Shown: positions 1 through 61,570 of the stretch, in pieces
Position numbering within the stretch: the stretch's first letter is position 1
How the letters are laid out: each line of letters opens with the position of its first letter
Origin: a virus
Virus record (IMG/VR): IMGVR_UViG_3300023223_000518
Span: 1-61,570 of that record
DNA length: 61,570 nt
Reading direction: 5' to 3' (one strand)
Program-made: the position numbers and the translations under genes
Notes under the pieces: generated by a model
The model's database searches: none
The model's input: only the letters and a program-made list of their open reading frames with translations
Told to the model about the DNA's origin: nothing

Positions 1-144
1 CGAAACGGTGAAATATGTTTGAACACATGCTCGTTACATTTTGGCACGATGACACTTTCGATTTGGTCGCGTTGTCGCAATCTCGTTTATTGATCGGTGG
101 GAAACGACTGATATTGCTGGGGGCGTTCATCATCGAAATCGAAG
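1..144. repeat. Terminal redundancy, copy 1 (identical to 61427..61570); circular-assembly overlap or direct terminal repeat
   Basis: Bases 1-144 (cgaaacggtgaaatatg...catcgaaatcgaag) recur exactly at 61427-61570. Unique genome length is 61,426 bp. Confidence 0.95.
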
Positions 145-25616: not shown

Positions 25617-25755
25617 ATCGCGGTTTACAATCAAGGCGATATCGCATAAAGTGCTTCGCGCCGGATCAGCGGATGGGCCCAGCGTTGCTTGGCGAACCAT
25701 TCATGGATGGTAAGCGGCCTCAGGGTCATCCGTTGACCGGCTTTCGAGATCGACG

Positions 25756-26496: not shown

Positions 26497-26681
26497 AAGA
26501 ATGCGACGATAATCAGACAGCGCGGCATCATGTCAACGCATCGGCTGTCAGATTGCAAGAGGCGATTGAACATCTTGCGCGCATCGTAGTTGATCGATGT
26601 GAAGACAGCGAAGACTACAACGCCGACGCAGCTCGGCAAATTCTCAATCTGATGATCGAAGCAAGGAACATCACATTGTGA
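26493..26681 (+). CDS. hypothetical protein (62 aa)
   Basis: ATGA-coupled. Acidic and helical. Confidence 0.4.
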   Translation: MKECDDNQTARHHVNASAVRLQEAIEHLARIVVDRCEDSEDYNADAARQILNLMIEARNITL

Positions 26682-27667
26682 AGATCGCCCTCTGTGAAAC
26701 GAAGCCGACGCCGCGCGGGGATTACATCCTCGATTGCCTGCGCGCCGGATTCGAGAGGCACGATGAGAACGTCTACAATCTGCGGTTGGCTGATCCAATC
26801 GAAGCGCTCGACCTGATGGACGTCGCCGTGATGATCTGCGCTCCGAACCCCGCAGACAAGACAACAAAACAGATGATCCGCCGACACGAGATATGGGACC
26901 GAAGCCGCATTGTCGGCCGGCCGATACTCGTGATCGATTCCGGGTTCTTCCACACGCAAGCGGATGCGGAGATGCGTGATGGATTCAAAGCCGACCGACA
27001 CGGCGGGTTCACCCGATTCGACAAGAGCGTTTACTATCAACTCGGCTGGAACGGCTTCAAGCGCACCGCATTGCTCCCTACGAACAACCTCAAGAGATTC
27101 CACGGGCTGTCGATTCGAATTCAGAAACCGCAGATCATCGACACCACGCGGCCGATCATCATCATCGGACAGCCGGATCAAGGCGTCTCGTGCTGGGATG
27201 TCAATCTCGTCGGCATGTACCGCGATCTCGTAGAACGGCTCCGCGAAATCTGTAATTGCACGGGCGAGATCAGATTCCGGCAGCATCCTAGAATCTTCAA
27301 AGATGCTCGCCGCTTTCCGATGCAGGCGAAATGGACGCGGCGGTTCTTCGGGCACGATGTCACGTTCTCAACGCACGTTGATATCGCTGAAGACCTGCGG
27401 GACATCGGGACTGCGTTCGTCTATTCATCCAACGCGGCCGTGCAAACCGTCATCCGTGGAATCCCAACGTTCGTTGAATCCGACGATTGCCCGGCGTGGC
27501 CGGTCTCTTGCGGGGAGTGGAAGCTGTTCCCCACCGAACCGACTCCGCCGACGATGACCATGATAGAGTGGGCGCAACAGATCGCGGCGTCACAATGGAA
27601 TTGTTCCGAGATGGCGAACGGCTCCGCGTGGAAAGAACTCAAGGCAAGGATACCGGTGAAACGATGA
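26678..27667 (+). CDS. GT-B-like / capsule-synthesis-like transferase, paralogue of 31243..32130
   Basis: GTG start. The C-terminal VYSSNAAVQTVIRGIPTFVESDD parallels VTFGSNAAVESICHGVPAVVIGDG in the paralogue. Confidence 0.45.
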   Translation: MKIALCETKPTPRGDYILDCLRAGFERHDENVYNLRLADPIEALDLMDVAVMICAPNPADKTTKQMIRRHEIWDRSRIVGRPILVIDSGFFHTQADAEMRDGFKADRHGGFTRFDKSVYYQLGWNGFKRTALLPTNNLKRFHGLSIRIQKPQIIDTTRPIIIIGQPDQGVSCWDVNLVGMYRDLVERLREICNCTGEIRFRQHPRIFKDARRFPMQAKWTRRFFGHDVTFSTHVDIAEDLRDIGTAFVYSSNAAVQTVIRGIPTFVESDDCPAWPVSCGEWKLFPTEPTPPTMTMIEWAQQIAASQWNCSEMANGSAWKELKARIPVKR

Positions 27668-27888
27668 GCGTTAGATACACATTTGAATGTTACTCATGTC
27701 TGCGGACATCATCATCCGCCGTGGGTTCTGACGCATCCGATCGTTACGGGCCGCGCTGCGATCAATGTCGCGCAGCCGATCGCCACGGGCCATCGCTGTC
27801 AGACTTCTCAATCACATGGGGGTTGCGGATCGGTGCCGTACTGTTGGTTGTCGGATTCGTCCAGTTGATGGAGTTTCTTTCGCAATGA
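27664..27888 (+). CDS. zinc-ribbon + TM small protein (74 aa)
   Basis: ATGA-coupled. Contains CYSC...CDQC, then the TM helix LRIGAVLLVVGFVQL. Confidence 0.45.
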   Translation: MSVRYTFECYSCLRTSSSAVGSDASDRYGPRCDQCRAADRHGPSLSDFSITWGLRIGAVLLVVGFVQLMEFLSQ

Positions 27889-28742
27889 TCGAAGACCAGA
27901 TTCTTTTCGCTACGACGGCATCGTTCGATCTGTTCGAAGTGAGCGGCCCGGAGTTCGTTTCTTCGTTCGGCCAACAACACGCGAAATCCGGGCACAAGCT
28001 GTGGATGGGCCTTGAGGGAATCGAGATCGGCGCGACGCAGCATTTCATCATTCATGACCTCGACACCGATGACATGCTCGCCACCTTCTTACGTCAGAAT
28101 GCGGATGTGATTCCCGAATATCTAGGTGGCAATATGAAGCCGTGCGATTGTCCAGATACGAAAGACGCGGACGGGAAAGAGATAAGACACGCGCGACATC
28201 GATCGATCGACAAGCGAGAGTCGCCAGGGCCGAATTACAAGTGGGCCGCGAGCAAGTGCCATTATCAGTGGATGAATCGAAACGCCAGCCGATGGTTCCG
28301 CAAGGTCGTCACTCTCTATCGCGCGGCGAGTGCCGGACAGCACCGATATCTCGTTTGGTGTGACATCGATTGCCGATTCCTTGCACCGATGAGCGTCCGG
28401 AATCTGACGAGTAAATTTCTGCGAGGCAAAGCGATCGCGTATTTCAAGGGTCCGAAACGCGAAGCGCCGGAAGTTGGGGTCGTGTGCTTCGATCTGCAAG
28501 ACGGCGGGCTCGAATTCATCAGTCGGTACATGCATCGATACACGAGCCGTCGATACTTGGCTTGGCATCGCTGGGACGATGGGTTCATCTTCGGAACTCT
28601 GATAGCGGATCACTATCAGGATATTTCTATCGATCTGGTGACTGACGGCCGATCGACGAACGTGATTCCGCTGACTCCGATGCGGGAGTTTGTACACCAC
28701 CGAAAAGGATTTCATGGAAGACAGCTCGGAATTATGAAGTAG
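27885..28742 (+). CDS. putative GT-A glycosyltransferase (DxD)
   Basis: ATGA-coupled. Contains YLVWCDIDCRFL. Confidence 0.4.
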   Translation: MIEDQILFATTASFDLFEVSGPEFVSSFGQQHAKSGHKLWMGLEGIEIGATQHFIIHDLDTDDMLATFLRQNADVIPEYLGGNMKPCDCPDTKDADGKEIRHARHRSIDKRESPGPNYKWAASKCHYQWMNRNASRWFRKVVTLYRAASAGQHRYLVWCDIDCRFLAPMSVRNLTSKFLRGKAIAYFKGPKREAPEVGVVCFDLQDGGLEFISRYMHRYTSRRYLAWHRWDDGFIFGTLIADHYQDISIDLVTDGRSTNVIPLTPMREFVHHRKGFHGRQLGIMK

Positions 28743-29295
28743 CGCGCCTCAGTTTGTTCCGTTTCGATTCGCACGGTTTGCATTGATGACACAGTCCGTG
28801 AACTTGACAACGATTCTTATGAAACTCGCACCGCAATTTATAAGTTTCGCACGTGCCACACCAAGCCATGCCGTCGGGTGCATGTACGTTGTGGTTCCCC
28901 AGTGCGAGCCGCGAATTCTCGGCAAGCGGTATCAGCCGAATGTTACCGAACTCATAATGCCCGCCGTTGATTCGATCGATGCTCGGTTGTCGATCACCGA
29001 AGTCAAACACATAGATCGGCCAAGATGCAACGAACCACGCGATGAAATCGTCGCGGCTGATTCTGATCTCGACATCGGCATACGTTGGATTCTTTCCGTC
29101 GCTGTTCCGCTCGCGTTGCTTCATCGTGGAATAGATGGCCGTTGCTCGTTTGCCCGGCGTTTGGTATTCGCGTCGACTGCGGAGCAGCAAACACGGTTTG
29201 CATTCGTTCAAACGTCCGTCGCGCATTTTGCAGTTGCGGTGGAACTCATCGAGCGGCTTGACCTGCTCGCAGACTTTGCATTGTTTCTCAGACAT
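28732..29295 (-). CDS. HNH homing-type endonuclease
   Basis: Antisense to the surrounding operon. GAGGAG SD upstream of the ATG at 29295. SIDRINGGHYEFGNIRLIPLAEN is the HNH core, flanked by two CxxC...dG...CxxC modules. Confidence 0.65.
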   Translation of the reverse strand: MSEKQCKVCEQVKPLDEFHRNCKMRDGRLNECKPCLLLRSRREYQTPGKRATAIYSTMKQRERNSDGKNPTYADVEIRISRDDFIAWFVASWPIYVFDFGDRQPSIDRINGGHYEFGNIRLIPLAENSRLALGNHNVHAPDGMAWCGTCETYKLRCEFHKNRCQVHGLCHQCKPCESKRNKLRRATS

Positions 29296-29390
29296 GATCG
29301 CTGCTCCTCGAAAGTGGCGATTGTTAGGGCGGGCCGGTACCAACGCCGGCTCGCCCGATCTTATCACACATGCCATTGAGGTGGAATCCA

Positions 29391-29618
29391 ATGTCCGATC
29401 GCATTCGAATCGCGGAGGCACTGCGGGAACTTGCAGGACGGATCGAAGATAGCGAGATGCATTGCGAGGTCTGGATATTTGCTAAAGCCAAACCGGTTCA
29501 CGATGATGATGGAGTTGTCATCGATCATGTTCACCTTGGAGACGCCATCTTGCTTCGATGCGATGACGCGCCCGACGATTTAGGATTCGATAAGGGTGAA
29601 CCATTCTTGAAGTGTTAA
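29391..29618 (+). CDS. hypothetical protein (75 aa)
   Basis: GAGGTGG SD upstream of the ATG at 29391. Confidence 0.45.
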   Translation: MSDRIRIAEALRELAGRIEDSEMHCEVWIFAKAKPVHDDDGVVIDHVHLGDAILLRCDDAPDDLGFDKGEPFLKC

Positions 29619-29631
29619 TAGGATTTATGAA

Positions 29632-29799
29632 ATGAATCGCTTCCCAGTTGACAAGACCGATGAGATCATGATTCCGATCGATAGGGAAAACGGCGAGAAG
29701 CTCGGCGTAGATATGAGATTTCCGAAAGACATTACGCCTGAAGAGTGGAACATCGTTATTGAACGGGCCTCGAAACGCATTGGGAATTTGCAGGAATGA
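29632..29799 (+). CDS. hypothetical protein (55 aa)
   Basis: Below the track cutoff. ATGA-coupled to 29796. Preferred over minus-strand ORF 29625..29978. Confidence 0.4.
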   Translation: MNRFPVDKTDEIMIPIDRENGEKLGVDMRFPKDITPEEWNIVIERASKRIGNLQE

Positions 29800-31019
29800 A
29801 AGAAATCGACGGGCTGTACTTTCCGGATGCCGACACGCACTTTGAGGAATTGTGCCGGCGGAAGGGAATCAAGGTCGCTCAGTATCAGACGGATCGGATT
29901 GCCGCGGCGATCGTCTATTCCCTTGACGTCGCCGGCTCCGATGTCTGCATTGAGGTCGGGGCTCACGTTGGCATCCATACACGATTACTTGCGGCACAAT
30001 TCAAGCAAGTCTACGCGATCGAAGCGCATCCGCTGAATTACGAATGCCTCGTGCGCAACACGCTGGACCTGGACAACGTTACCACGCTTGCGAGTGCGAT
30101 CACAGCCAAAGACGGCGAGACTCGGATTGATAACCCGGTTGATGGAAATACCGGCAACTTGCAGATAGGCGGCAACGGACCGCGAGTGCCGGGCGTGACG
30201 CTGGATTCGCTCGGGTTGCCGATCCCCGATCTATTGAAGATCGACGTGCAGGGTGCCGAACTGCGGGTACTGTCCGGAGCGCGGCGCTTGCTGATCGCTG
30301 GGTCTCCGGCCGTGCTTTTCGAAGAAGAACCGCCCGGCAAGTTGCGGCGAGCGCTTGCCAAGTCGAACGCGGCACAAACTTATCTCTTGAAACTCGGCGG
30401 CAAGATCGTATGGACGGCCGGAGCGGATGCGATCGCGACGTTTCCCGATGGAGCTTGGCCTTACACGAAATATTCGGAGCAAGGCGAGTACCATTGGAAG
30501 CATTACGAGAGCGGGAAATTCCGAGTGATTATCGATTGGGTCGGTTGCTATGTCGGATCGAAGAATCATGATTCCATCGTCGACATCGGATGCGGAGATG
30601 GTGTGTGGTCGGGCGTCATCAACCTGCATGCGTCTAATCTGGACGGCAAGACGCCGGCATTCGGAATCGACCGCGACACGAGAGCGATTCAATGCGCGAA
30701 ACAACGCAGCGTGCCGGTTCATGTCGGCTCAGCGCATCGACTGAGCAAATTCGATTTCGATGCCGCTCTGTTGGTAGATGTTTTGGAGCACATCCCGTGG
30801 CCCGAGCGTGTCATCGGTGATCTACGCCGCCGATCAATCCGCGACGTCTACGTGGTCAATCCGGACCCGAACGGATCACGCTGGCACATCAATGAATTTG
30901 AACAGGATGAAATGTCCGACGCGTTCGAACGGCAGGGATACCGTGTCGAGCGTCGCGAAGACTTCATCATAACGAGCCGAAATCACAAAACGTTTTTCCA
31001 TTTCAGACTGGACGAATAA
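29796..31019 (+). CDS. two-domain methyltransferase (FkbM-like + class I SAM-dependent)
   Basis: N-terminal domain has IEVGAHVGIHT...AIEAHPLNYECLVRN...LLKIDVQGAEL. C-terminal domain has IVDIGCGDGVWSG...LLVDVLEHI. Confidence 0.65.
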   Translation: MKEIDGLYFPDADTHFEELCRRKGIKVAQYQTDRIAAAIVYSLDVAGSDVCIEVGAHVGIHTRLLAAQFKQVYAIEAHPLNYECLVRNTLDLDNVTTLASAITAKDGETRIDNPVDGNTGNLQIGGNGPRVPGVTLDSLGLPIPDLLKIDVQGAELRVLSGARRLLIAGSPAVLFEEEPPGKLRRALAKSNAAQTYLLKLGGKIVWTAGADAIATFPDGAWPYTKYSEQGEYHWKHYESGKFRVIIDWVGCYVGSKNHDSIVDIGCGDGVWSGVINLHASNLDGKTPAFGIDRDTRAIQCAKQRSVPVHVGSAHRLSKFDFDAALLVDVLEHIPWPERVIGDLRRRSIRDVYVVNPDPNGSRWHINEFEQDEMSDAFERQGYRVERREDFIITSRNHKTFFHFRLDE

Positions 31020-31246
31020 TGCCATTGCCAATCGTGGAAATCAAAGTGAATGATTATGGTGGTAGTCCGGCCGCGGATCACAACATGCCTTGCCCGATCT
31101 GTCACGCCGCCTATCAACGCAAGGCGACGTTGTCGCTAAACACGGGCCGCTTTCACCCATGCAGAGAATGCCGGCGCGTCGGGTGGATCACGATTCGTGT
31201 TCCGGGATTCGTGAAGTGGCTTTTGAAAAGGTGGCACGAATTATGA
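31019..31246 (+). CDS. zinc-finger small protein (75 aa)
   Basis: Contains CPIC...CREC. Confidence 0.45.
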   Translation: MPLPIVEIKVNDYGGSPAADHNMPCPICHAAYQRKATLSLNTGRFHPCRECRRVGWITIRVPGFVKWLLKRWHEL

Positions 31247-32130
31247 AAGTCGGTTTCTACGCATCGATCGGCAAGCGCTACGACATGGGGCTATTCGAGC
31301 ATTTCGGACCCGGCGTGACAGCGTGCGGCGACGAGATTCGATTGCTCGACATCCACAAAGATGCGACCGTAATCGATGACCTCGACGTGATCATCGTCGT
31401 CGGCGTCAAAGACAAATCGCTACCGACATGGCAAGCGAACCAAGCGGCCGGCAAGCGATGCGTGATACTCGATAAGGGTTACACGCGGCTCCGCGGCGGA
31501 GTTTTGAATACGCGATTCTGGCGTGTGTCGCTGGATGCGTTCCAACCTACCGAGCGGCTATGCACCGGACCGCAGAGATCGCCTGATCGTTGGCTTAAGA
31601 CTGGCGTTCCGGTCGTTCCGTGGCAGCGCGATGATGGTGATACGGTCGTCTTTTGCGGATCTTCTCAAAAGTACAACAACTGGCACGAACTCGGCGAATC
31701 GACCGCGTACGCAACGAAGATCATGAATAAGCTGAAAGAGATCACGAAAGGGCAATTCACCCTCGTGTACCGTCCAAAGCCGTCATCGAAGGAAGCTAAG
31801 GATTGTATCGACATTCCCGGATTCCGATTCAGTCCCCCGAAAGACAGCCTGCCGAATTACACAGACACGACTGCGCATTGCATCGTGACGTTCGGGAGCA
31901 ACGCGGCCGTGGAATCGATCTGTCATGGCGTGCCGGCGGTCGTCATTGGAGACGGAGTCGCGCGGCCGATCAGCAGTCAACGGTTGCAGGACGTGTTGAA
32001 TCCATTCAAGGCGGATCACGATTCAGTTCTTCAATGGCTGGCGAATCTGGCGTACTGGCAATGGGAGCCGGCTGAGATGCTGGCGGGTAAGTGCTGGCGA
32101 TTCTTGCGCGGGGAGATCGAACGTGAGTGA
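31243..32130 (+). CDS. GT-B-like / capsule-synthesis-like transferase, paralogue of 26678..27667
   Basis: ATGA-coupled ATG at 31243. Shares the C-terminal motif with 26678..27667. Confidence 0.45.
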   Translation: MKVGFYASIGKRYDMGLFEHFGPGVTACGDEIRLLDIHKDATVIDDLDVIIVVGVKDKSLPTWQANQAAGKRCVILDKGYTRLRGGVLNTRFWRVSLDAFQPTERLCTGPQRSPDRWLKTGVPVVPWQRDDGDTVVFCGSSQKYNNWHELGESTAYATKIMNKLKEITKGQFTLVYRPKPSSKEAKDCIDIPGFRFSPPKDSLPNYTDTTAHCIVTFGSNAAVESICHGVPAVVIGDGVARPISSQRLQDVLNPFKADHDSVLQWLANLAYWQWEPAEMLAGKCWRFLRGEIERE

Positions 32131-32218
32131 GCAAACGAAACGACGTCTCGCGCTGATCGGCATGTTCCTTTTGGCCACGGTTGCAATGATGCTAATGCTC
32201 TGGGGACTCTATCGATGA
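32123..32218 (+). CDS. mini membrane peptide (31 aa)
   Basis: GGGAGATCGA (32111-32120) lies 2 nt upstream of the GTG. Product VSEQTKRRLALIGMFLLATVAMMLMLWGLYR. ATGA-coupled to the sulfotransferase gene. Confidence 0.35.
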   Translation: MSEQTKRRLALIGMFLLATVAMMLMLWGLYR

Positions 32219-32802
32219 TCGATCTGAAACCACCATACGGCGGCGACGGAAGACTGTGCCCGCTTGTCGTGACAGGGACACCGCGGAGCGGTACGAAATT
32301 CATCTGTACGGCGCTTCGCAACGCTGGCAAGCACATCAAGCACGAAAGCGCCGGCGGGGAAGATGGGCTCGTCGATTGGATGTGGCTGTTCCGAGAGCGG
32401 AATCCAGACCGGGTCGATCGGTTGATACTGCAAGTTCGGGAACCGGTCGCCTGCATCCGATCGATCGCGATCCATCCGGATAAGATTCACGATTGGCTGT
32501 GTGCCGTCGTGCCGATCAATAAGCATGACTCGCCGATCAAGCGAGCGGCTCAATTCTATCTCTACTGGAATAGCCTGTTGTTGTCGATGTGCGACGATTG
32601 GTATCAGTTGGAAGATCGCATCGAATGTATGCGGTGCCTTTCCCCATTCGGTTTGAAGGAATGGCATCTCGACGGGGCAGATCAGAATCGGAACGAAGGT
32701 CCGGCCCATGCTTTGGGCGGGCTCATTGATCTTGTTGGTGAGATCGACAAATTCACCAGAGCGGGCTTGATGCGGCTCGCCGAAACTCTCGGGTATGAAT
32801 AA
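32215..32802 (+). CDS. sulfotransferase
   Basis: VVTGTPRSGTKF is a PAPS 5'-phosphosulfate loop. LQVREPVACIRSI is 3'-PB-like. Confidence 0.6.
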   Translation: MIDLKPPYGGDGRLCPLVVTGTPRSGTKFICTALRNAGKHIKHESAGGEDGLVDWMWLFRERNPDRVDRLILQVREPVACIRSIAIHPDKIHDWLCAVVPINKHDSPIKRAAQFYLYWNSLLLSMCDDWYQLEDRIECMRCLSPFGLKEWHLDGADQNRNEGPAHALGGLIDLVGEIDKFTRAGLMRLAETLGYE

Positions 32803-33119
32803 TGCTGAACGAGATCGAAGCCCACTTTATGACGGCCGCGGAGATCGCGGAGACCGTCGACATCGTTGATGCGTTACTCGCCGTTCAAGTGAACTCTGTG
32901 GAGCCGGAGAAGTTCTCACGCACGGTCGTTGATGCCGTCGCGGTGAATATCATTGAAGCGTGGAAGAACAGGCACAAGACAGCGATCGACGATGAGGCGT
33001 CGTGCAGATTCACCACGCTACCTGACAAACGGATTCAATGCGTTGTCGCCGCTCAAGGTCGGACGAAACAAATCGCTGGCCGATCGGCGATGGCGCAAAT
33101 CACCAAGGCACTGAGGTGA
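32802..33119 (+). CDS. hypothetical protein (105 aa)
   Basis: The ATG overlaps the upstream TAA. Confidence 0.45.
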   Translation: MLNEIEAHFMTAAEIAETVDIVDALLAVQVNSVEPEKFSRTVVDAVAVNIIEAWKNRHKTAIDDEASCRFTTLPDKRIQCVVAAQGRTKQIAGRSAMAQITKALR

Positions 33120-33121
33120 TC

Positions 33122-33982
33122 ATGCTCAACCCAAGGATATTCATCGGCTGTGATTCGCGCGAGATGATCGCAGCGGAAGTCGCCGCGCATTCATTCCGGC
33201 GATGCATGCCGGGCTATGAGATCGTGTTTCTCACGAAAGAACTCTGTGCGGAGTTCGGATTCACGCCCGATGGGCGGCCAGGTTCAACTGAATTCACATA
33301 CACTCGGTTTCTCGTTCCGTGGCTGTGCGGGTTCAAGGGCTTGGCGCTCTTCGTGGATTGCGATGTGTTGATGTTGAGAGAGCCCTCGCCAGTTGGCGCG
33401 GAAGATCAAAGCGCCGATTACGATCTGCATTCGCTGTCGAATTCTCTGGACATGACGCAGCACGCGCTCGCGGTCGTTCCTCACTTCTACGTTCCGTCAT
33501 CGTCATCGAAGATGGACGGCCAGCGACAACACGCATACTTCCGCAAGCTGTGGTCTGCTGTGATGCTGTTGCATTGCGAGCGACTTGAGCCGTATTGGCC
33601 GAAAGAAGTTGTCGAGAAGGAATCGCCGGCATTGCTCCACGGCTTCACGAATATTCCGACTGACGAGATTGGCGAACTGCCGGCGGCGTGGCATTGCTTG
33701 GAACCGAAGAAAGCGATCGGATTGAGCAAGCCGATCGAAGGTGAAAGCGGACTCAGCATGTGCCATGATGAATACAAGGCAATACTGTTTCACTACACCG
33801 AGGGCGGTCCGTGGTTCGAGAAATACGCTGCCTGCCCATTCTCTGGCCGATGGTACGAAGAATTCGAGTTGATCTATGGGAAAGGTTCTGCGGAAACGTT
33901 CAAGAACTGCGTGCGAGATTCCGGTTGTGGTAATTGGGAAAGGCTCGTCAGTGACCCATATTCCGGCATCATCAGAATTTAA
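33122..33982 (+). CDS. glycosyltransferase family 8-like
   Basis: GAGGTGATC SD. Contains YTRFLVPWLCGFKGLALFVDCDVLML (DxD). Confidence 0.55.
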   Translation: MLNPRIFIGCDSREMIAAEVAAHSFRRCMPGYEIVFLTKELCAEFGFTPDGRPGSTEFTYTRFLVPWLCGFKGLALFVDCDVLMLREPSPVGAEDQSADYDLHSLSNSLDMTQHALAVVPHFYVPSSSSKMDGQRQHAYFRKLWSAVMLLHCERLEPYWPKEVVEKESPALLHGFTNIPTDEIGELPAAWHCLEPKKAIGLSKPIEGESGLSMCHDEYKAILFHYTEGGPWFEKYAACPFSGRWYEEFELIYGKGSAETFKNCVRDSGCGNWERLVSDPYSGIIRI

Positions 33983-34529
33983 GATCGCGGCTTGTTCAGA
34001 AGCGATCAGGATGTGCGATCGTGCCGACTGGCTGGCCGTGAATGATGTGCCGGCTTTCGAATCGCTTGACGCCAGCGATTTACGTCGAGCCGATGCGATC
34101 GTACTGCCGAACTTCCTGCACGTCACGCCCCCGCCGATCAAGCCGGGGCCGAATGATCTGCATTGCTTCCGATCGCATACGACGTTCGCGCCGGCAATCA
34201 GCGCGGCGAAATGTAAGCTGATCACCTATTGCCTACACACCGATCCTTACGTTGCTGAGAATTCGCGCCGACTTCCGTTCTTCGGTCGATGCCGGAGCAT
34301 CTCGGATTCTCTAATCGCTTACTTGCTCTACCTGGGGCATCGGGAGATCGTGACGACCGGGATCGAATGGAATGGAGCCGCGCGCTATCATCCCGATTTC
34401 CGCCGGCAAGTTGCGAAGACGGTACGGCATCGTAAAGCGATCTGGTCAGACACAGTGAAGCGGATCATAACTGCCGGCGGAAGCGTGTTCCGCTGGGAGG
34501 ATTCGAGGATCAATCCGGAGAATCAGTAA
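33876..34529 (+). CDS. second DUF115-like protein (start uncertain)
   Basis: Contains VVVIGKGSSVTHI and SISDSLIAYLLYLGHREIVTTGIEWNG. Overlaps the upstream gene by ~107 nt, so an internal GTG start is possible. Confidence 0.4.
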   Translation: MGKVLRKRSRTACEIPVVVIGKGSSVTHIPASSEFKIAACSEAIRMCDRADWLAVNDVPAFESLDASDLRRADAIVLPNFLHVTPPPIKPGPNDLHCFRSHTTFAPAISAAKCKLITYCLHTDPYVAENSRRLPFFGRCRSISDSLIAYLLYLGHREIVTTGIEWNGAARYHPDFRRQVAKTVRHRKAIWSDTVKRIITAGGSVFRWEDSRINPENQ

Positions 34530-34530
34530 G

Positions 34531-35214
34531 ATGGCGACAACCGACGTATTCACATTCACATGCCCGCATTGCTCGTCAGAAGCGACGTGCAATCGCACGC
34601 GTTGCACCGATGTGATGTGCCCGAATTGCGGCAACGACATGAGCGGTTCGGAAGACGCCGACGTTGAGGACATGTATGAGGCGGCTACATCGATCGGGAC
34701 AGAGGATGGTCCGGGGGCGGCGACTGCCGGCACTAAACTTGAAAAGTTCCTTCACGAAGATATGGCGCGCAACATGTCTCCGGAATGGGCCGATAAGAAC
34801 TGGGGCAAAGTCCGGCACGTCTTCAACGACGACGGCTTCTCATTCTCTGATCTGCGGGTTGTCGCCGGTGAGCGTTGCTCGTTGCACTTTCATGAAGAGC
34901 GCGCCAACACGTTTCAATGCGTCGATGCGCAGTTAATTGTTGAATGGTGGGGGCCGACCAATCAATGCTCGCGGCAAGACCCGCTCGGATGGCAGTATGA
35001 AGAAACGAACCGCTATTTTTTGCATCCGCTTGAGAGTCCGATGCAATCTATTTTGTTGGGAGAAGGGGCTTGTCTTGTCATCGAGCCGATGATCTGGCAC
35101 CGCTTCCGAGTCGTCAAGCCGGGCACTTTGCTTGAATTGTATTTCGCACAACCGGGCAAGACCGTTCGGCTCGACGACATCATCCGCTTCGATAAAGGGG
35201 GGCCGGATCGATGA
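34531..35214 (+). CDS. zinc-ribbon + cupin-domain protein (sugar isomerase/epimerase-like)
   Basis: N-terminal CPHC...CPNC. Cupin motif VVAGERCSLHFHEERANTF. Confidence 0.5.
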   Translation: MATTDVFTFTCPHCSSEATCNRTRCTDVMCPNCGNDMSGSEDADVEDMYEAATSIGTEDGPGAATAGTKLEKFLHEDMARNMSPEWADKNWGKVRHVFNDDGFSFSDLRVVAGERCSLHFHEERANTFQCVDAQLIVEWWGPTNQCSRQDPLGWQYEETNRYFLHPLESPMQSILLGEGACLVIEPMIWHRFRVVKPGTLLELYFAQPGKTVRLDDIIRFDKGGPDR

Positions 35215-35303
35215 TCACGACAACGCTTCACCATTTCCTTCTCGTGCTGTGCTGTCTCGGTTGTCTTCGCATCGGATATGTTTTCGGAGAATTGCGTCGA
35301 TGA
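35211..35303 (+). CDS. mini membrane peptide (30 aa)
   Basis: ATGA-coupled at both ends. Product MITTTLHHFLLVLCCLGCLRIGYVFGELRR. Confidence 0.3.
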   Translation: MITTTLHHFLLVLCCLGCLRIGYVFGELRR

Positions 35304-35941
35304 TCATCATCATTCTCGGAGCCGGCGCTTGCGGCATCGCTTCGTTCGTACATTTCCTGAATCAGCAACAATCAACGCTGATCTCGAAAGAACGCGGCCT
35401 CGAGGGAGCGGCGTGGTCTGGAGGTCTATCGCATGAACTGGATTTGTTCGACCATCTCGTCGCGGACCAAGTCAAGCGGCCGGATGCTGTCCACGGAGAC
35501 GCCGGGTTCTATCATCTGAACTATGTACACGAGTTGCATCAGCGATACGATGGGAAGATTCTTTTCGTTTCCCTTCAACGCGATACCGGCGAGACATTCG
35601 ATGATTGGTCGGGCGATCTCGCGAAATCTTGGAGCAACACGAATCCGCTTTGCGAATCGACGCCGATCTGCGGGCCGAACTTTAAGCCGTCTCCGCTCGC
35701 ACATCTGTACCCATCGATCGGAATCGGCGATCAAGAACTTGCGGCCGCTCACTACATTTCTATGTATGTCAGCGCGACACACTGGCTTGAAGAACAACTC
35801 GGCGGGCGGTTGATCCATCTCCCGACTTCGCTGCTTGATGATGAAGCGGGCCAGACGGATATCCTCGACGTGCTCGGGTATCCGGATGTAGGCCGAACGC
35901 TGATTCCCGGCGGCGTTGACGTTCACAAGGGCAAGGTCTGA
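35300..35941 (+). CDS. possible third sulfotransferase-like protein
   Basis: Weak motifs only: IIILGAGACG, ILFVSLQRDTGETFDDW, and a C-terminal LLDDEAGQTDILDVLGYPD. Confidence 0.3.
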   Translation: MIIIILGAGACGIASFVHFLNQQQSTLISKERGLEGAAWSGGLSHELDLFDHLVADQVKRPDAVHGDAGFYHLNYVHELHQRYDGKILFVSLQRDTGETFDDWSGDLAKSWSNTNPLCESTPICGPNFKPSPLAHLYPSIGIGDQELAAAHYISMYVSATHWLEEQLGGRLIHLPTSLLDDEAGQTDILDVLGYPDVGRTLIPGGVDVHKGKV

Positions 35942-36223
35942 TCAATCGCCTTGCCGCTTCACGCGAGCGGCTGTTGGTCCAGCATCTTCACCCGTAAGAT
36001 GGACCCGATGCTCGCATTGTTGCAAGGCAATTCGATATTGGTTGGCCGTGCATCTTTGCCACAGATACGTTCTGACTGCGTTGCGTGGCAATTCCGGAGC
36101 GTTAGCGAAGATTTCCTTATCAATCCCAACGGCCAGCGGAACATACTTTCCGAACGCGAGTGGGTAATGCGCTTTGAGAAAGGTGCTAATTTGATCGAGC
36201 TTCTTCTGTGGCACTTTTCGCAT
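35942..36223 (-). CDS. ProQ/FinO-domain RNA-binding protein
   Basis: 93 aa. ISTFLKAHYPLAFGKYVPLAVGIDKEIF...NAVRTYLWQRCTANQYRIAL...HRVHLTGEDAG follows the FLxxxFPxxF..PLxIGIxxD(L/I)...LRxxLxxYTxxxxY...RxDLxG pattern of the ProQ N-terminal domain. The ATG lies 1 nt after the upstream stop. Confidence 0.65.
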   Translation of the reverse strand: MRKVPQKKLDQISTFLKAHYPLAFGKYVPLAVGIDKEIFANAPELPRNAVRTYLWQRCTANQYRIALQQCEHRVHLTGEDAGPTAARVKRQGD

Positions 36224-36224
36224 T

Positions 36225-36449
36225 TCATCGACCTGCGATGTCGAACTCAATACCATTGGCATTGACCGGACTGGAAAAAAAACTAATCGCTTCCGCAAGT
36301 TTGTTGAAGTGCTCGACGGCCTGTTGATTCTCCAGACCTACGAATATTGAACCGTGCGCCGGGTCCATCTCAGAAATGGTTCCATCAGAAAGATGCACGC
36401 GAATCTGCTGAAGTTCGCTGATCTTGATTCTAAGAAACGCTTTATTCAT
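36225..36449 (-). CDS. hypothetical protein (74 aa)
   Basis: Middle gene of the minus-strand operon. ATGA-coupled to 36446..36643. Confidence 0.5.
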   Translation of the reverse strand: MNKAFLRIKISELQQIRVHLSDGTISEMDPAHGSIFVGLENQQAVEHFNKLAEAISFFSSPVNANGIEFDIAGR

Positions 36450-36643
36450 TCGATGACCGGTAGAGGAACCAAACGTCTGAGCTTACAAGGAATCGCTTCA
36501 TGCGCCACACGCATTTCGGAAAGCCGCTGTTGCAACAACTTGTTGGCATTCTGGCTTATCATATCGACTTTTTGCTTTTGAATGTGGGCTTCCTTCGCCG
36601 CTTCGACAGTTCCCACAAGCTCGGCTATGAGTTTGATTGTCAT
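36446..36643 (-). CDS. hypothetical helical protein (65 aa)
   Basis: First gene of the minus-strand operon. No SD. A promoter-like element lies immediately upstream, so the mRNA may be leaderless. Confidence 0.45.
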   Translation of the reverse strand: MTIKLIAELVGTVEAAKEAHIQKQKVDMISQNANKLLQQRLSEMRVAHEAIPCKLRRLVPLPVIE

Positions 36644-36649
36644 ACGGAA

Positions 36650-36678
36650 ATGTTACATAACCCGGCGCGTCGCTTCAA
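36650..36678 (-). promoter_or_regulatory. candidate promoter of the minus-strand operon
   Basis: On the minus strand: TTGAAG (36678-36673), 17-nt spacer, TAACAT (36655-36650), ending 6 nt before the ATG. Confidence 0.3.
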
Positions 36679-36826
36679 GATGCGACTTAGCGATTGCCGA
36701 TCTCGGCATCATCTGCACCCCACAACATCTTGCGCTTTTAATCTCATCAGGCACAAGATGCGGCCTTCCTCTCCCCGTCTATTGACATTCCCGCCAGATC
36801 TTGCGATTGATGTCGGCGCATAAAAA

Positions 36827-36864
36827 GAGCGGCCGCAAATGTTTTGGTAGAACTGCGGCCGCTC
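36827..36864 (-). terminator. Rho-independent terminator for minus-strand transcription
   Basis: GAGCGGCCGCA (36827-36837) pairs with TGCGGCCGCTC (36854-36864). On the minus strand the hairpin is followed by TTTTTA (complement of 36821-36826). Confidence 0.65.
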
Positions 36865-37402
36865 GCGTGCAAAGGTGTTTCGAACGATGCCAATGATCCC
36901 AAAAACGGACACGGAACGCAATGCCGATATCGGCTTTCGTTCAGGTTTTCCCGTTTCCCAGCGATCAGCCTCATCGCGAGAGCGGACCGGCGGAGAGTCG
37001 CCGGGAGATCAGAACTGGTATGGTAGCCAAACCATGCACGGGCAAAGGAATCGCGCTTCCCGCAACGCGATGTTCGTAGCGATTGGACCTCAAGACAAAA
37101 CACCGCTCTGTCACCCTGCAACGGTGTCCTGCCCCGAATTACAATCGCGATCTCGCCGTCAATCTTTCGCGCGCATCAAAGCTGACCGAACCGTTTCTTC
37201 CAAAGCGCGACGCCAGATCGCGCGCAAAATTGCCAGTTCTCGATACGCTCTTGCATTCGATTCCGATATGTATCTGTTTTGGTGGATTGGGAATCGGTGA
37301 GAATGCGAGAATCGCCCGGATCGCTTTGAAGGCGACCGGACGACTCGCATCAAGATAATCGAACTGTTGGATGGGGCAGGTAATTGGGGCGGTTGCGCGC
37401 TA

Positions 37403-37431
37403 TTGCATGAAACGCGATTGCTGATTATGAT
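37403..37431 (+). promoter_or_regulatory. candidate sigma70-like rightward (early?) promoter
   Basis: TTGCAT (37403-37408), 17-nt spacer, TATGAT (37426-37431), 64 nt upstream of the ATG at 37495. Confidence 0.4.
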
Positions 37432-37494
37432 TCACCGCGTAAACCCCTCGCCATAACGGCAGGGCATCTCTTTCAAACCGGAGGGTGATCAATC

Positions 37495-38931: not shown

Positions 38932-39221
38932 CCGATATCGCATTTCATGCCATGATAGGGCATCGGATCATTATTGATTCGATGCTCTTCTCTTGCGCGG
39001 GTGATAACAGCGATGAAAAAGGCAGCGTTCTTTCAAGCGTGTGGCGGAGCGATCTTCGGCGTTACTGCTCCGCGGATCGAATGGGGCGAACACCCAACTC
39101 TTCACTTTTATCGGGTCACACTTCATGGCAGGCGCAGAAGCGGAATGACCGAACTTCAACTTTACAAACCGAATCAACGCGACATGTTTCTATCAGGCGG
39201 ATCGAGCCGGGTTCAGGAGTT

Positions 39222-39479: not shown

Positions 39480-39694
39480 ACGGTCACCATAAATGTCCTG
39501 TTGACGGATGCCAGCGGCTGATTAAGGATCGATTCGCATTCTGTCATACCCACTGGTACAAGCTGACTGACGACGAGCGTGCGGCTGTTTGGAGATCGTA
39601 TCACAAGCACGGAGCCGGCACGGCAGAGCACTTCGCTACGCTTAGCATGATGGCGGAGCGAATCGACCTACGGCAACGGAGATCGATTGGATGA
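39473..39694 (+). CDS. zinc-finger small protein (73 aa)
   Basis: Contains HHKCPVDGC...FCHTH. Confidence 0.5.
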   Translation: MLDGHHKCPVDGCQRLIKDRFAFCHTHWYKLTDDERAAVWRSYHKHGAGTAEHFATLSMMAERIDLRQRRSIG

Positions 39695-40509
39695 ATGATC
39701 AGAAACCCCACTTGAGCGCGACACAATTGAATCTGGCTTCGATGTGCGGAGAGGCATACCGCCGGCGATACATCGAAGGTGATAAGCTTCCGCCGGGCGT
39801 GGCGATGATTCGCGGCAAGAGCGTACATCATGCGGCCGCAGAGAACTTCACGCAAAAGATTGAATCTCACGAAGATTTGCCTCGAGCTGACATCGTCGAT
39901 CAAGCCGTTTCGAAATTCGATCTCGAATGCAAAGGCGGCTATGAACTCACTGGCGACGAGAAGGGCCGCAAGCCGGCGGATGTCCTGGACGATGCGCGCG
40001 ATGACGTTCGCGAGTTCGCCGATCTGCATGCACGGGATCAAGCGCCGGATTATCAACCGGCGTATGTGGAAGAACAGTTCCGGATCGAATTGCCGGGCTC
40101 GCACGACTTCGTCGGCATCATCGATCTGGCGACGGAAGACAAGACCGTTGCCGATCTCAAGACGACGAAGAAATCGCAGAATCAATCGGCCGCTGATCAA
40201 TCGGTTCAATTGACCGGCTATGCTGCCGGATACAAAGCGATCACCGGCGATCCGCCCAACCTTATTCAACTGGACGTTGCCGTCGTTCTGAAGACCAAGA
40301 CGAAGCGTGATGTTTTCAAGACGCATCGCACGCCCGCGGACTTCGCGGAACTCGCGGCGCGCACGAACGCACTGATCGGTGCGATCCAAGCCGGTGTCTT
40401 CATTCCGATCGAACCGAACCATTGGAAGTGTTCGGAGAAGTGGTGCGGATTTCATGCCACTTGTCCATATACGCAAGGCGTGCGGAGCCGTGCAACGCAA
40501 AACGACTGA
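39691..40509 (+). CDS. PD-(D/E)XK nuclease, Cas4/RecB-like exonuclease
   Basis: Contains GIIDLATEDKTVADLKTTKKS, QLTGYA, an N-terminal MCGEAY and a C-terminal CSEKWCGFHATC Cys cluster. GGAGATCGAT (39678-39687) lies 3 nt upstream of the ATG. Confidence 0.7.
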   Translation: MNDQKPHLSATQLNLASMCGEAYRRRYIEGDKLPPGVAMIRGKSVHHAAAENFTQKIESHEDLPRADIVDQAVSKFDLECKGGYELTGDEKGRKPADVLDDARDDVREFADLHARDQAPDYQPAYVEEQFRIELPGSHDFVGIIDLATEDKTVADLKTTKKSQNQSAADQSVQLTGYAAGYKAITGDPPNLIQLDVAVVLKTKTKRDVFKTHRTPADFAELAARTNALIGAIQAGVFIPIEPNHWKCSEKWCGFHATCPYTQGVRSRATQND

Positions 40510-40598
40510 CCTTCCCCCGCGCGGCGACGATGCCGGTTGCTTGCACGTTCCGGCCCAACAGCCGTCGCCGCGCTTCATTCTTTTTGGAGATCGACACG

Positions 40599-41441
40599 AT
40601 GGTGGATGCGACAACTGCTTATCGATACTTGGCATCACTGGCAGAGAAAGTTTCTTTCGATCTTGAGATCGTTTCTCCATCGGCGCATTGCGTGCAGGTT
40701 GTTTGCCCCGAAGCAAAGTTGATCCTGGGTTACTACCCATCGAAAGCCTCGTACAACTTTCAGGGAGCGGCGGTGGCGAAAGATCGGAAGGCGCAAAAAG
40801 CGAAACGCGGCAAGTCGATTGATGACGCGTTCTCAGCATTCATCAACAGATGCGGGAAGATCAGGGAGATCAGCGCGCGTGAGGCGGCGATCGTCCACTG
40901 CCCCGGGTGCCGATGCGTGCTCTACGATCTTGCGGCGCGCGATGGCTGGTGCACGAACTGCAATCCGGCGAACAGGACGCAGAGTCCCGAAGATTACGGC
41001 TCTGGAACGGAAAAACCGGCAGAGCGGAAATGGAACATGTTCGACCCAGAAGCGTCGCGAGCGGAACCGCGCAACCTTCCACTGCAACCGGAGCCGAAGT
41101 CTGAGCATGCATTCGTCATTCGGACAATGCACCGGCCGCATTTGTACTTATCGTGCACCTGTCCGCCACCGGGTAGCGGTTATTGCTGGCGAACGCAATT
41201 GGCGCTAGCGATCCAATTTCTACGAAAGGACGATGCGAAGTCAATCGGTCTAATACAAGGCGATCCGTTTACAATCTGCCCACTGCAACACAAGACAGAA
41301 TATCCTCACAGCCACGCCGATTACCTCGAACTCGCACGCGACGAATTGGTTCAATTACAGAAACTCTACTGCGATGCGATCGGGGTCACACAATCGATAA
41401 ATGGCGTTGCGCAGATCATCGATTTCATATTGCGTGATTGA
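40599..41441 (+). CDS. hypothetical protein with zinc ribbon (280 aa)
   Basis: GGAGATCGAC (40586-40595) lies 3 nt upstream of an internal ATG of track ORF 40422..41441. Contains CPGC...CTNC. Confidence 0.5.
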   Translation: MVDATTAYRYLASLAEKVSFDLEIVSPSAHCVQVVCPEAKLILGYYPSKASYNFQGAAVAKDRKAQKAKRGKSIDDAFSAFINRCGKIREISAREAAIVHCPGCRCVLYDLAARDGWCTNCNPANRTQSPEDYGSGTEKPAERKWNMFDPEASRAEPRNLPLQPEPKSEHAFVIRTMHRPHLYLSCTCPPPGSGYCWRTQLALAIQFLRKDDAKSIGLIQGDPFTICPLQHKTEYPHSHADYLELARDELVQLQKLYCDAIGVTQSINGVAQIIDFILRD

Positions 41442-41521
41442 CGACGAGCATGAAATGAGATATCGTTTCGAGCGGCGAAAGCGCCGCTCATCTCTTACAC
41501 CTGATTCAAGGGAGATCGACC

Positions 41522-43390
41522 ATGAATCAACCCATCGATTCTGAAGTTGTTGAGAAGACAGAGATCATTCCAGATGCGATCTTGCAGGCCAGAGCGCTAG
41601 CGGAACTGCCCCCGAATCTCGCAATGATCCGGATGGAGAATGATCAAATATTCTCGCTTGCCGCGGCGCATCCCCGCAATCACGAAGCGATCAAAGCAGA
41701 TATTGTTGCGCAATTGATGGCGTATCCGTCGTTCGCACAAGCGGCCGTCTATCAGAAGCCGGTGGGAACAAAGCCGGCGACGTGCCGGAAATGCCAAACG
41801 GAGATGTCGGTAAAAAAGGGCGATCCACCTCCGAAGCAATGCGCGAAGCCGGGATGCGAGAGCACGAGCATCGACCCCGGTGGAATGCAGTACGCGAGCG
41901 GTTTATCGATTCGAGCCGCGGAAGCGCTCGCGGCGGCTTATGGATTCAATAGCATCGAAGCCGACGAAGAAATCATCGACGACGATCATGTCAAAGTGAC
42001 CGCGACGTTCATTGACTACCAGCGCGGCCGTCGATGGAAAGACTCCGGAATCGTCTCGAAAGTATTCCGCGGCGCTGGCGGGACGATGCGGCGTCATTCT
42101 GACGATCGCTTCCATTCGATCGTGATCAAAGCGGAGAAATCGAGGCGCATCCGCGAAGTGGTATCGCGGAGCGTTCCGCCGGGGCTGCGTGAAGAACTCC
42201 TGATCTGCGCTCGACGGCAAGCGATGACGCTTCTCACTGATGAAGTCGTTGAACAAATCGTGAATTACTTTGCCGGCAAGGGCGTCACGCTGGAACAGGT
42301 CGAATCGCATCTCGGTAAGTACCGGAAAGACTGGACCAAAGATGATCGAGCGACGCTCGCCGCGATCAAGACCGCCGTGGAAGACGGCGATACCTCTATC
42401 TGGGAAGTTTTCGAGCGAGATGATCAGCCCGGCAACGGAGGATCGAAGCAACCGCCCGGCGACGTCAAGCCGGAATCATTCGAGAATCCGAAGAACGGCG
42501 GAACGACGCCGGGCCGATCGATAATGTGGAAGTGTTTCACTTGCACATTTGAGTTCACATCAGACACACAGCCGAAAGGTTGCCCCGAATGCGGAGAGAT
42601 CGATTGTCGCGTCGCGGCAGCGGACTCCAAGACGCCGGTGGATTCGTCCGATGCATCCGCCCCATCCGGCGGAGATCGCGTCGAGACAGCCGCACAAGAG
42701 CCGGAGCGGGTCGCAATTTCGCTCGGCTCGCAACCTCCGGTATTTCCGACCAAAAAGCAATTCGTCAAGGATGCCGCGCGGCTCGTGCGGCTTGGGTTGC
42801 CTCAATTCGAGATCGACGGGAAGCTGAAAGCCGTCGAGTACATCGCCGAGTATGGCCGTCTGTGGCGTTTGGTCTCAGGAGCGACTGAACCATCGGCTCC
42901 GGAACGGCAAGCCGATCCTGATGCATCCTCGCAAGCCTCAGAGCAAACCGCGGAGACGCCGGACGCAGGGCACACAACTGATGTTGCTCGCGAGCGGGCT
43001 GATGATGCAAAAGCGCAATCTGATAACGATCGATTCTGGGAAGAAATCGGGGAATCGAACACGGGGCATCAACTCGACCATATTGCAGATATGGCGTATG
43101 AATCATTTGGGTCGACTGAGATGCGATCGATCGACGGACCGGAACATACAGCAATCATCACAGCGATCGCCGCGCGACGCGGAGACTTGCTCGCCGCGGA
43201 ATCCCCGAAAGGCACATCCGATCTGGCCGACATCGCCGCGTTCCGCGAAGCAATCAAGACGGCCAGCAAATCACAACTGCAGACGATCCAACAAGAAACG
43301 AATCGGGCATTGCAAGACAATCGGCTCGACATGTTAGGATTCACGGAAGCGATGACTCTGATCGACAAACGAAAGAAAGCGTTGAGGTAG
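41522..43390 (+). CDS. large DNA-metabolism protein, possible single-strand annealing protein with zinc-ribbon insertions and acidic tail
   Basis: 622 aa. GGGAGATCGAC (41510-41520) lies 1 nt upstream of the ATG. RecT-like impression around GLSIRAAEALAAAYGF. Neighbours an exonuclease and RusA. The function call is weak. Confidence 0.35.
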   Translation: MNQPIDSEVVEKTEIIPDAILQARALAELPPNLAMIRMENDQIFSLAAAHPRNHEAIKADIVAQLMAYPSFAQAAVYQKPVGTKPATCRKCQTEMSVKKGDPPPKQCAKPGCESTSIDPGGMQYASGLSIRAAEALAAAYGFNSIEADEEIIDDDHVKVTATFIDYQRGRRWKDSGIVSKVFRGAGGTMRRHSDDRFHSIVIKAEKSRRIREVVSRSVPPGLREELLICARRQAMTLLTDEVVEQIVNYFAGKGVTLEQVESHLGKYRKDWTKDDRATLAAIKTAVEDGDTSIWEVFERDDQPGNGGSKQPPGDVKPESFENPKNGGTTPGRSIMWKCFTCTFEFTSDTQPKGCPECGEIDCRVAAADSKTPVDSSDASAPSGGDRVETAAQEPERVAISLGSQPPVFPTKKQFVKDAARLVRLGLPQFEIDGKLKAVEYIAEYGRLWRLVSGATEPSAPERQADPDASSQASEQTAETPDAGHTTDVARERADDAKAQSDNDRFWEEIGESNTGHQLDHIADMAYESFGSTEMRSIDGPEHTAIITAIAARRGDLLAAESPKGTSDLADIAAFREAIKTASKSQLQTIQQETNRALQDNRLDMLGFTEAMTLIDKRKKALR

Positions 43391-43451
43391 CGATCTCCCT
43401 TGCCCGGCGGGATTGTGCCGGGTAGCGGCGTACCAAGCGCAGTGCATCGGG

Positions 43452-43482
43452 GCGGCCGCGGAGGATCGCGGCCGCTCTTTTT
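43452..43482 (+). terminator. Rho-independent terminator
   Basis: GCGGCCGCG (43452-43460) pairs with CGCGGCCGC (43467-43475), with a 6-nt loop, followed by TCTTTTT. Confidence 0.75.
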
Positions 43483-47419: not shown

Positions 47420-47455
47420 CCGCTTTTCTTTTCTCTTGACCTTGGGAGATCGACC

Positions 47456-61426: not shown

Positions 61427-61570
61427 CGAAACGGTGAAATATGTTTGAACACATGCTCGTTACATTTTGGCACGATGACACTTTCGATTTGGTCGCGTTG
61501 TCGCAATCTCGTTTATTGATCGGTGGGAAACGACTGATATTGCTGGGGGCGTTCATCATCGAAATCGAAG
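61427..61570. repeat. Terminal redundancy, copy 2 (identical to 1..144)
   Basis: Exact 144-bp match to the window start. Contains a truncated second copy of the 15..512 ORF starting at 61441. Confidence 0.95.

Follow-up and report, generated by a model that had tools for sequence, protein, structure and literature searches.

A truncated FinO/ProQ-domain protein encoded beside a terminator-bearing non-coding region in a tailed-phage genome

The window analysed here is the whole of IMG/VR virus record IMGVR_UViG_3300023223_000518, a stretch of 61,570 bases that is a complete tailed-phage genome. It carries a cluster of three open reading frames (ORFs) on the minus strand, orf65, orf74 and a gene for a 93-residue protein with a FinO/ProQ domain (Table 1). 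The three ORFs (36643 to 36446, 36449 to 36225 and 36223 to 35942) had been described in an earlier note on this DNA and lie exactly where it placed them. They are tightly packed. The stop codon of orf65 overlaps the start codon of orf74 as ATGA, and the 93-aa gene starts 1 nt past the orf74 stop codon (stop, 1 nt, ATG), which suggests that translation of the FinO gene is coupled to that of orf74. A chain of tightly abutting ORFs extending at least 400 nt upstream of a third gene was found in 0.23% of 20,000 random sequences of matched composition (p ~0.002), the chain observed here being 420 nt long; this tight chaining of orf65 and orf74 is unlikely by chance. It is from the spacing that we infer a single transcribed operon. 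At its other end the cluster meets the plus-strand gene 35300-35941. The convergent stop codons of this gene and of the 93-aa gene abut in the palindrome TGATCA (35939-35944), with zero spacer and no terminator on either strand between the two genes; both transcripts must therefore overlap as antisense 3' ends. The cluster has an atypical composition, with a G+C content at third codon positions (GC3) of ~0.5 compared to 0.66 for the rest of the phage.

Protein sequence analysis assigns the product of the last gene to the FinO/ProQ family. The 93-aa protein matches Pfam PF04352 with 43.7 bits (E 2.9e-11), above the gathering score of 27, the match spanning residues 9-85 of the protein and positions 4-85 of the 109 of the profile. 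A HMMER search of 1.84 billion representative proteins yielded one close relative (67% identity) and 45 further matches with E <=0.001. The query, the close relative and 30 single-domain matches were combined in a family alignment of 32 sequences, all 32 of which have PF04352. Compared to PDB sequences, the profile of this alignment matches every structurally characterised FinO-domain protein, namely ProQ (5nb9, 1e-25), NMB1681 (8e-21), RocC (3e-18), FinO (2e-10) and also Lpp1663. An AlphaFold2 (AF2) model computed on the same alignment, with a mean predicted local distance difference test (pLDDT) of 90.8 and a predicted template-modelling score (pTM) of 0.76, displays helices followed by strands at residues 72-74 and 80-83, as in the helical core and beta-hairpin of the FinO fold. 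Foldseek extends the homology to known structures: ranks 1 to 26 among PDB entries are all FinO-domain structures, with template-modelling (TM) scores of 0.65-0.80, and the next match has E >4. The TM score is 0.77-0.80 to NMB1681 and RocC. RocC's FinO domain in complex with the RocR terminator (PDB 7rgu) superposes on the phage model with a root-mean-square deviation of 1.7-2.0 A over 87-89 columns for most chains. The earlier note had read a ProQ/FinO domain in the 93-aa translation, which it quoted correctly, and had proposed to drop this reading if neither profile nor structure resembled the FinO domain. Both clearly do, with ProQ, FinO and RocC all among the relatives found.

A coding model trained on the long genes of the phage picks 62 genes in the window, 62 of 62 on the plus strand. 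It selects no minus-strand ORF, so the case for the FinO cluster is made by homology and by the structure of its ORFs. In this model even the FinO gene scores low (2.4 bits). In the comparison with the 67%-identical relative, identity is 44% at third codon positions and ~80% at first and second positions, and the ratio of nonsynonymous to synonymous substitution rates (dN/dS) is 0.10-0.19. The 93-aa gene is real, is under purifying selection and encodes a genuine member of the FinO/ProQ-domain family.

The residues that contact RNA in the family can be followed into the phage protein. In RocC, Gly52, Tyr87 and Arg97 hold the 3'-terminal nucleotide and Arg75 contacts the hairpin (PMC9674577). 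Gly52, Arg75, Tyr87 and Arg97 correspond to Gly33, Arg51, Tyr63 and Arg73 of the 93-aa protein, respectively. The tyrosine and arginine of the pocket are ten residues apart, their counterparts in ProQ being Tyr70 and Arg80, and Tyr63, Arg73 and Gly33 are invariant or nearly so across the 32-sequence alignment. The modelled fold and the residues of its pocket both belong to the FinO domain. The basic isoelectric point (pI) of the protein is in line with RNA binding, an activity to which the conserved pocket also points.

Table 1. Features of the minus-strand cluster and of other parts of the window discussed in the text (aa, amino acids; SAM, S-adenosylmethionine; JGI, Joint Genome Institute).
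Feature	Position	Strand	Basis
orf65, 65 aa, basic, probably helical ORFan	36446..36643	-	ORF list
orf74, 74 aa, acidic ORFan	36225..36449	-	ORF list; JGI gene call
93-aa minimal FinO/ProQ-domain protein, pI 9.8	35942..36223	-	Pfam, profile, AF2 model, dN/dS
851-nt non-coding region, from minus-strand cluster to plus-strand early genes	36644..37494	.	Coding scores
Intrinsic terminator: 12-bp stem GAGCGGCCGCAG/UUGCGGCCGCUC, 14-nt loop, UUUUUAU tail	36818..36864	-	Folding
CsrA homologue, 59 aa	38752..38931	+	Pfam PF02599
Plus-strand terminator after gene 41522-43390	43450..43482	+	Terminator scan
Sialyltransferase-like C-terminal domain protein	24555-25616	+	Family match
Protein with FkbM and SAM-methyltransferase domains	29796-31019	+	Family match

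Upstream of the cluster lies a large non-coding region with a minus-strand terminator, both recognised in the earlier note and both borne out here. Every ORF of the region is negative in the coding model (-8.5 to -24 bits) and none has a Pfam or PHROG match; the plus-strand ORFs 36500-36823 and 36875-37300, considered as genes, were ruled out by their coding scores and lack of matches. The region has no Rfam or tRNA match, and blastn and megablast found no similar DNA in phages or plasmids. The G+C-rich stem of the terminator (36864 to 36827, ~-23 kcal/mol) lies 175 nt upstream of orf65, and its 101-nt context folds at -33 kcal/mol (z -2.8). No other strong terminator turned up on the minus strand when the whole genome was scanned with a relaxed loop size; the plus strand at this position has no U-tract. 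The minus-strand RNA 36818-37230 folds above shuffled controls (z -2.9), with a predicted G-U-containing hairpin of 19 bp at ~37148 to 37079. A minus-strand RNA ended by the terminator is plausible on these grounds. No k-mer enrichment such as iterons or an operator motif survived multiple testing in the region (best CAATCGC, 5 copies, p 1e-4, 763 tests). Two more specific roles were tried. A decoy RNA of the CsrB/RsmZ kind for the CsrA protein of the phage was rejected, since it would call for GGA/ANGGA motifs, whose frequency is at or below the genome average. A trans-antisense target of the putative small RNA (sRNA) is not supported: shuffled controls give matches in the same range as the best ones, which are 15-mers.

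We favour, with moderate confidence, the hypothesis that the 93-aa protein is a functional minimal RNA-binding protein of the FinO/ProQ type, acting as a terminator-binding chaperone on phage transcripts. It would be expressed from a short leftward cluster diverging from the early and replication genes and would recognise Rho-independent terminators by binding the foot of the hairpin and the 3' U-tail that follows it, the RNA 3' end being held in the Tyr63/Arg73/Gly33 pocket. Bound RNAs would be stabilised or helped to pair, and expression of phage or host genes would thereby be tuned post-transcriptionally. The most economical candidate ligand is the putative minus-strand transcript of the adjacent non-coding region ending at the 36864 to 36818 terminator, so that the neighbouring sRNA would be the cognate partner of the FinO protein. 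A candidate second site is the plus-strand terminator at 43450-43482, which has the same 3' arm and tail. RNA binding as such, the identity of any ligand, co-transcription with orf65 and orf74 and early timing are what we infer beyond the assignment of the protein itself.

Several observations weigh against this hypothesis. In the protein, the cap position (Ser70) of the helical N-cap motif with which RocC binds the phosphates of the hairpin is occupied by Pro46, instead of Ser, Thr, Asp or Asn, and affinity or specificity may therefore differ from those of the studied members. Proline is found at this position in 6 of the 32 aligned sequences, the Arg75 equivalent of the motif is kept (Arg51) and the helix begins at residue 47 in the model, where the backbone-amide contacts of the N-cap may be kept despite Pro46. 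The domain is also truncated. The chain stops at residue 93, 20 residues after Arg73, and profile positions 86-109 are unmatched; the helix that bears Asn115 and Lys119 in RocC is therefore mostly missing. The protein lacks a complete C-terminal helix, its last ten residues having a pLDDT of 57-75. This makes it a truncated variant and is not a ground for exclusion from the PF04352 family. Mutations of Asn115 and Lys119 in RocC lowered affinity about six-fold and in vivo function was kept (PMC9674577). For the RNA, the plus strand of the non-coding region folds nearly as well as the minus strand (z -2.6), so the structure signal is suggestive only and is not strand-specific proof of an RNA. 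No sigma-70 promoter-like site reached the scan threshold between 35500 and 38300, and the non-coding region shows no extended complementarity to other genes of the phage. Finally, the locus of the sole close relative (L001) has neither of the two upstream genes and no similar flanking DNA, and the gene-plus-RNA arrangement is therefore not shown to be conserved.

Comparison with known systems places the phage protein closest to a chromosomal one. The minimal ProQ of Neisseria meningitidis, NMB1681 (PDB 3mw6), is the best PDB match both in sequence (E 0.007) and in structure (TM 0.79). Both are near-bare FinO domains; the long linker and the Tudor-like C-terminal domain that enterobacterial ProQ has are missing from them. 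NMB1681 differs in sequence (~23% identity), in being chromosomal, in its length (crystallised chain of 144 residues) and in its complete C-terminal helix. The modelled likeness to RocC supports the same mode of recognition, by hairpin base and 3' tail; besides the N-cap and the largely absent counterparts of Asn115 and Lys119, RocC differs in having just one known sRNA partner and a long extension at its C-terminus. The plasmid proteins FinO (FinP/traJ) and FopA (Inc/repZ) are, like the phage gene product, FinO-domain proteins of mobile elements. They act on the antisense RNA of their own element via its terminator (PMC9977716) and are the model for the proposed partnership of phage protein and phage RNA. 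FinO is a weaker match to the phage protein (profile E 2e-10, Foldseek E 0.06) and has N-terminal extensions that the phage protein lacks. FinOP-type systems pair an antisense RNA with its target. In the window a terminator-ended minus-strand RNA is plausible, it has no Rfam match, and the complementarity search gave no such pair, with no significant complementarity to other regions of the phage.

FinO-domain genes are rare in phages but already annotated in more than ten cultured ones (PMC8541194), and the novelty implied in the earlier note was thus overstated. They are found in Aeromonas phages 4_4572 (98 aa) and LAh_6/8/9, Shewanella phage KASIA, Sodalis phage phiSG1, Salmonella phage 7-11, Sinorhizobium phage phiM9, Rhizobium phage RHph_N34 and Escherichia phage SU7. 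Their products share the predicted FinO fold with the window protein (TM 0.72-0.81 in BFVD, where about eleven viral proteins have this fold), with an identity of just 17-22%. These genes are likewise small, stand amid small hypothetical early genes and are functionally uncharacterised. A tblastn search with the N-terminal domain of ProQ returned 12 records, representing six phages, among 50,697 phage records; the same search with the window protein found none of the named phage FinO genes. The FinO gene of phage KASIA lies in the early region, and according to the genome paper FinO-like proteins occur "rarely in phage genomes" (PMC8541194). A review mentions phage-encoded FinO homologues in passing, and our literature search found no functional study of a phage-encoded FinO protein. 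Within the FinO/ProQ family the window protein is divergent and comes closest to the minimal type represented by NMB1681. It is not categorically new, because FinO-domain genes and CsrA genes of phages are already annotated.

The phage also carries CsrA, as the earlier note had said: the match to PF02599 has 80.5 bits against a cut-off of 27. The likely start codon of the gene is a GTG (38752) preceded by a GGAGGG Shine-Dalgarno sequence, and a plus-strand terminator of its own (38958-38987) comes after the gene. CsrA-like genes are present in 82 of the 50,697 deposited phage records, mostly of Pseudomonas and Vibrio phages. The presence of CsrA in the same phage as the FinO-domain gene enters into an alternative that we regard as unlikely, in which the 93-aa protein binds host RNAs and, with CsrA, hijacks or jams the post-transcriptional networks of the host, for instance by competing with host ProQ for the 3' ends of sRNAs and mRNAs. 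In that case the non-coding region would hold just the divergent early promoter or an origin, and the terminator in it would do no more than insulate. Such a role agrees with the finding that the FinO pocket reads generic features of terminators and not sequence (PMC9674577). Minimal ProQ proteins such as NMB1681 bind many RNAs, our searches gave neither specific complementarity nor a conserved partner RNA, and the GC3 of the cluster is consistent with an acquired accessory gene. Against it, plasmid FinO and FopA act on the RNAs of their own elements (PMC9977716), and the searches for prophage or phage relatives that would indicate a host found none.

The position of the terminator suggests another alternative, which we hold to be quite improbable. 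Terminator and structured RNA would form a temporal-control leader that is read through only after antitermination, as at lambda tL1/tR1 or HK022 put; there would be no sRNA gene, and the FinO protein would be a delayed product with no special tie to the upstream RNA. The terminator does separate the divergent control region from the cluster, on whose strand it lies 175 nt before orf65, with structured RNA upstream of it, and no sigma-70 promoter reaches the scan threshold between terminator and orf65. However, no antiterminator homologue is found among the neighbouring genes, and a weak TTGAAG-17-TAACAT element, read by eye and below the scan threshold, ends 6 nt before the ATG of orf65 and could give rise to a transcript that lacks a leader and does not depend on the upstream terminator.

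No function is recognisable for the two ORFs upstream of the FinO gene, in agreement with the earlier note. Neither has a homologue among 5.8 billion clustered proteins, nor a family in Pfam, PHROG, PADLOC or NCBIfam, where matches were sub-threshold noise only. Neither is found beside FinO-domain genes in eight other loci (L001 and L003-L008 among these), so the co-occurrence of the three genes that the earlier note had suggested looking for is not seen among the FinO relatives. Their coding scores are ~0, orf65 being the best of its six frames and orf74 being tied with another frame, and a Shine-Dalgarno sequence is absent for orf65 and not clear for orf74. The FinO gene scores equally low, which indicates that the coding model is insensitive for this compositionally atypical segment. 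The JGI gene caller reports orf74 as a gene (P0048); over orf65, on a second copy of the region (fragment L002), it places instead a plus-strand gene that scores -19 bits in the phage-trained coding model. A single-sequence AF2 model of orf74 was unusable (pLDDT 51). We consider orf74 a probable gene and orf65 a possible one, weakly supported because it has no homologues, a coding score of ~0, no Shine-Dalgarno sequence and a conflicting JGI call. That only the FinO gene is real, with orf65 and orf74 as chance ORFs in a long 5' untranslated leader and no three-gene operon, would account for these features and for the absence of both ORFs from the close relative L001, but is very improbable in view of the gap-free 420-nt chain with its ATGA and 1-nt junctions, so rare in random sequences, and of the equally low score of the genuine FinO gene.

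The terminator that would end the putative sRNA has a counterpart elsewhere in the phage. Its 3' arm and U-tract, GCGGCCGCUCUUUUU, are identical in the plus-strand terminator at 43450-43482. In a search with the 15-mer, the window holds 2 exact copies and one copy with 2 mismatches, while 0 of 100 shuffles reached 3 matches with <=2 mismatches. A separate, unrelated 15-mer match to the non-coding region also exists; such a match arises in 1 of 30 shuffles. The shared arm may be meaningful, since FinO domains read that part of a terminator. The two terminators may represent a duplicated terminator module or a common protein-binding site, and it is possible, speculatively, that the one at 43450-43482 is a second binding site of the FinO protein. 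The identical stretch of 15 nt, GCGGCCGCTCTTTTT, occupies 36822-36836 on the minus strand and 43468-43482 on the plus strand, within near-identical stems that contain a NotI site.

Gram-negative bacteria have three main families of sRNA-associated proteins, of which FinO/ProQ is one, and the roles of its members on plasmids are well worked out. If the hypothesis of a chaperone acting on phage transcripts is taken to its end, the phage would have a self-contained riboregulatory module made of a stripped-down FinO-domain chaperone, of the shortest kind known, and its own terminator-ended non-coding RNA from the adjacent region. We deem this extension rather unlikely. If true, this module, with the phage CsrA at its side, would govern the early-to-late programme or the takeover of the host. 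The chaperone would then recognise a small regulon of the phage by the arm common to the terminators at 36.8 kb and 43.5 kb, and for the first time a FinO-sRNA system of a phage would have its targets identified. The 93-aa version, in which the pocket is kept and the last helix and canonical N-cap are gone, is a natural minimal construct that could reveal which parts of the domain are needed for terminator recognition. A phage with both a FinO-domain protein and CsrA would be a convenient system for the viral use of post-transcriptional regulators. The value of the finding is that of a lead for experiments; current understanding is not overturned.

Distant relatives of the 93-aa protein are encoded in replication or early modules of mobile elements, with small genes around them. 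Two metagenomic fragments of mobile elements (L005, 1282-4513; L006, 456-3687) each have a gene for a 163-aa FinO-domain protein two genes upstream of a D5_N/DUF5906 primase-helicase gene within the same string of genes, with a gene for a single-stranded DNA-binding (SSB)-like protein and a TnpB (OrfB_IS605) gene close by. The synteny points to a recurrent link between small FinO-domain proteins and replication modules. In a contig from bioreactor sludge (L007, 3035-4743) the FinO-domain gene is centred in a long inverted duplication with mirrored flanking genes, and a second tblastn match lies on the reverse strand (3809-3579); the duplication is probably an assembly artefact. In Aeromonas phage 4_4572 (L009, 67791-69616) the 98-aa FinO-domain gene is directly followed by a terminator with a 13-bp stem, and one gene further there is an unannotated gap of ~785 bp, a layout loosely like that of the gene beside non-coding DNA in the window.

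The genome that houses the cluster is complete, because an exact 144-bp direct repeat joins both ends of the window (1-144 and 61427-61570): at 61,426 bp, it is either a completely assembled circle or a genome with redundant ends. Structural genes are present for a portal protein, a Mu F-like protein, a major head protein, a tape measure protein and a large terminase. We found no near relative of the phage in deposited phages, IMG/VR, JGI metagenome contigs or 185,579 bacterial species genomes (GTDB). The FinO protein and an alignment of P0001 and P0002 were searched in IMG/VR, JGI metagenome contigs and GTDB genomes, the capsid protein in IMG/VR and the terminase in GTDB genomes; nucleotide searches used megablast and blastn with phages and plasmids, and tblastn was run with phages. 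The sole extra copy found was L002, a 100% identical fragment of the phage itself.

The minus-strand cluster sits at the seam of two blocks of plus-strand genes, where, between 35 and 38 kb, the G+C content falls from ~56% to ~50% and the GC skew reverses. The left-hand block holds tail and accessory genes, including glycosyl- and methyltransferase-like genes. The right-hand block begins at 37495 and includes genes for CsrA, an exonuclease-like protein, a ParB-methylase and a topoisomerase-like protein. Because of its position at the seam, the cluster diverges from what look like early genes. A fourth minus-strand gene, counted in the earlier note, was not confirmed: the only other long minus-strand ORF (39601-40839), the longest of that strand with 412 aa, scores -55 bits in the coding model and is a shadow of plus-strand genes, lying opposite the exonuclease-like gene 39691-40509 and ORF 40422-41441.

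Behind the tail genes, a long plus-strand block (24555-35941) encodes kinds of proteins unusual in a phage, several of them large and without family match, together with the sialyltransferase-like and FkbM proteins of Table 1. It may be a cassette for surface glycans or DNA modification. Two genes have the same 12-nt start context, GGGAGATCGACC, in front of their ATG (41507-41521 and 47441-47455), and GGAGAtcga variants resembling it precede further genes, for instance at 39691 and 37970. This recurring context may be a common translation-initiation or regulatory motif.

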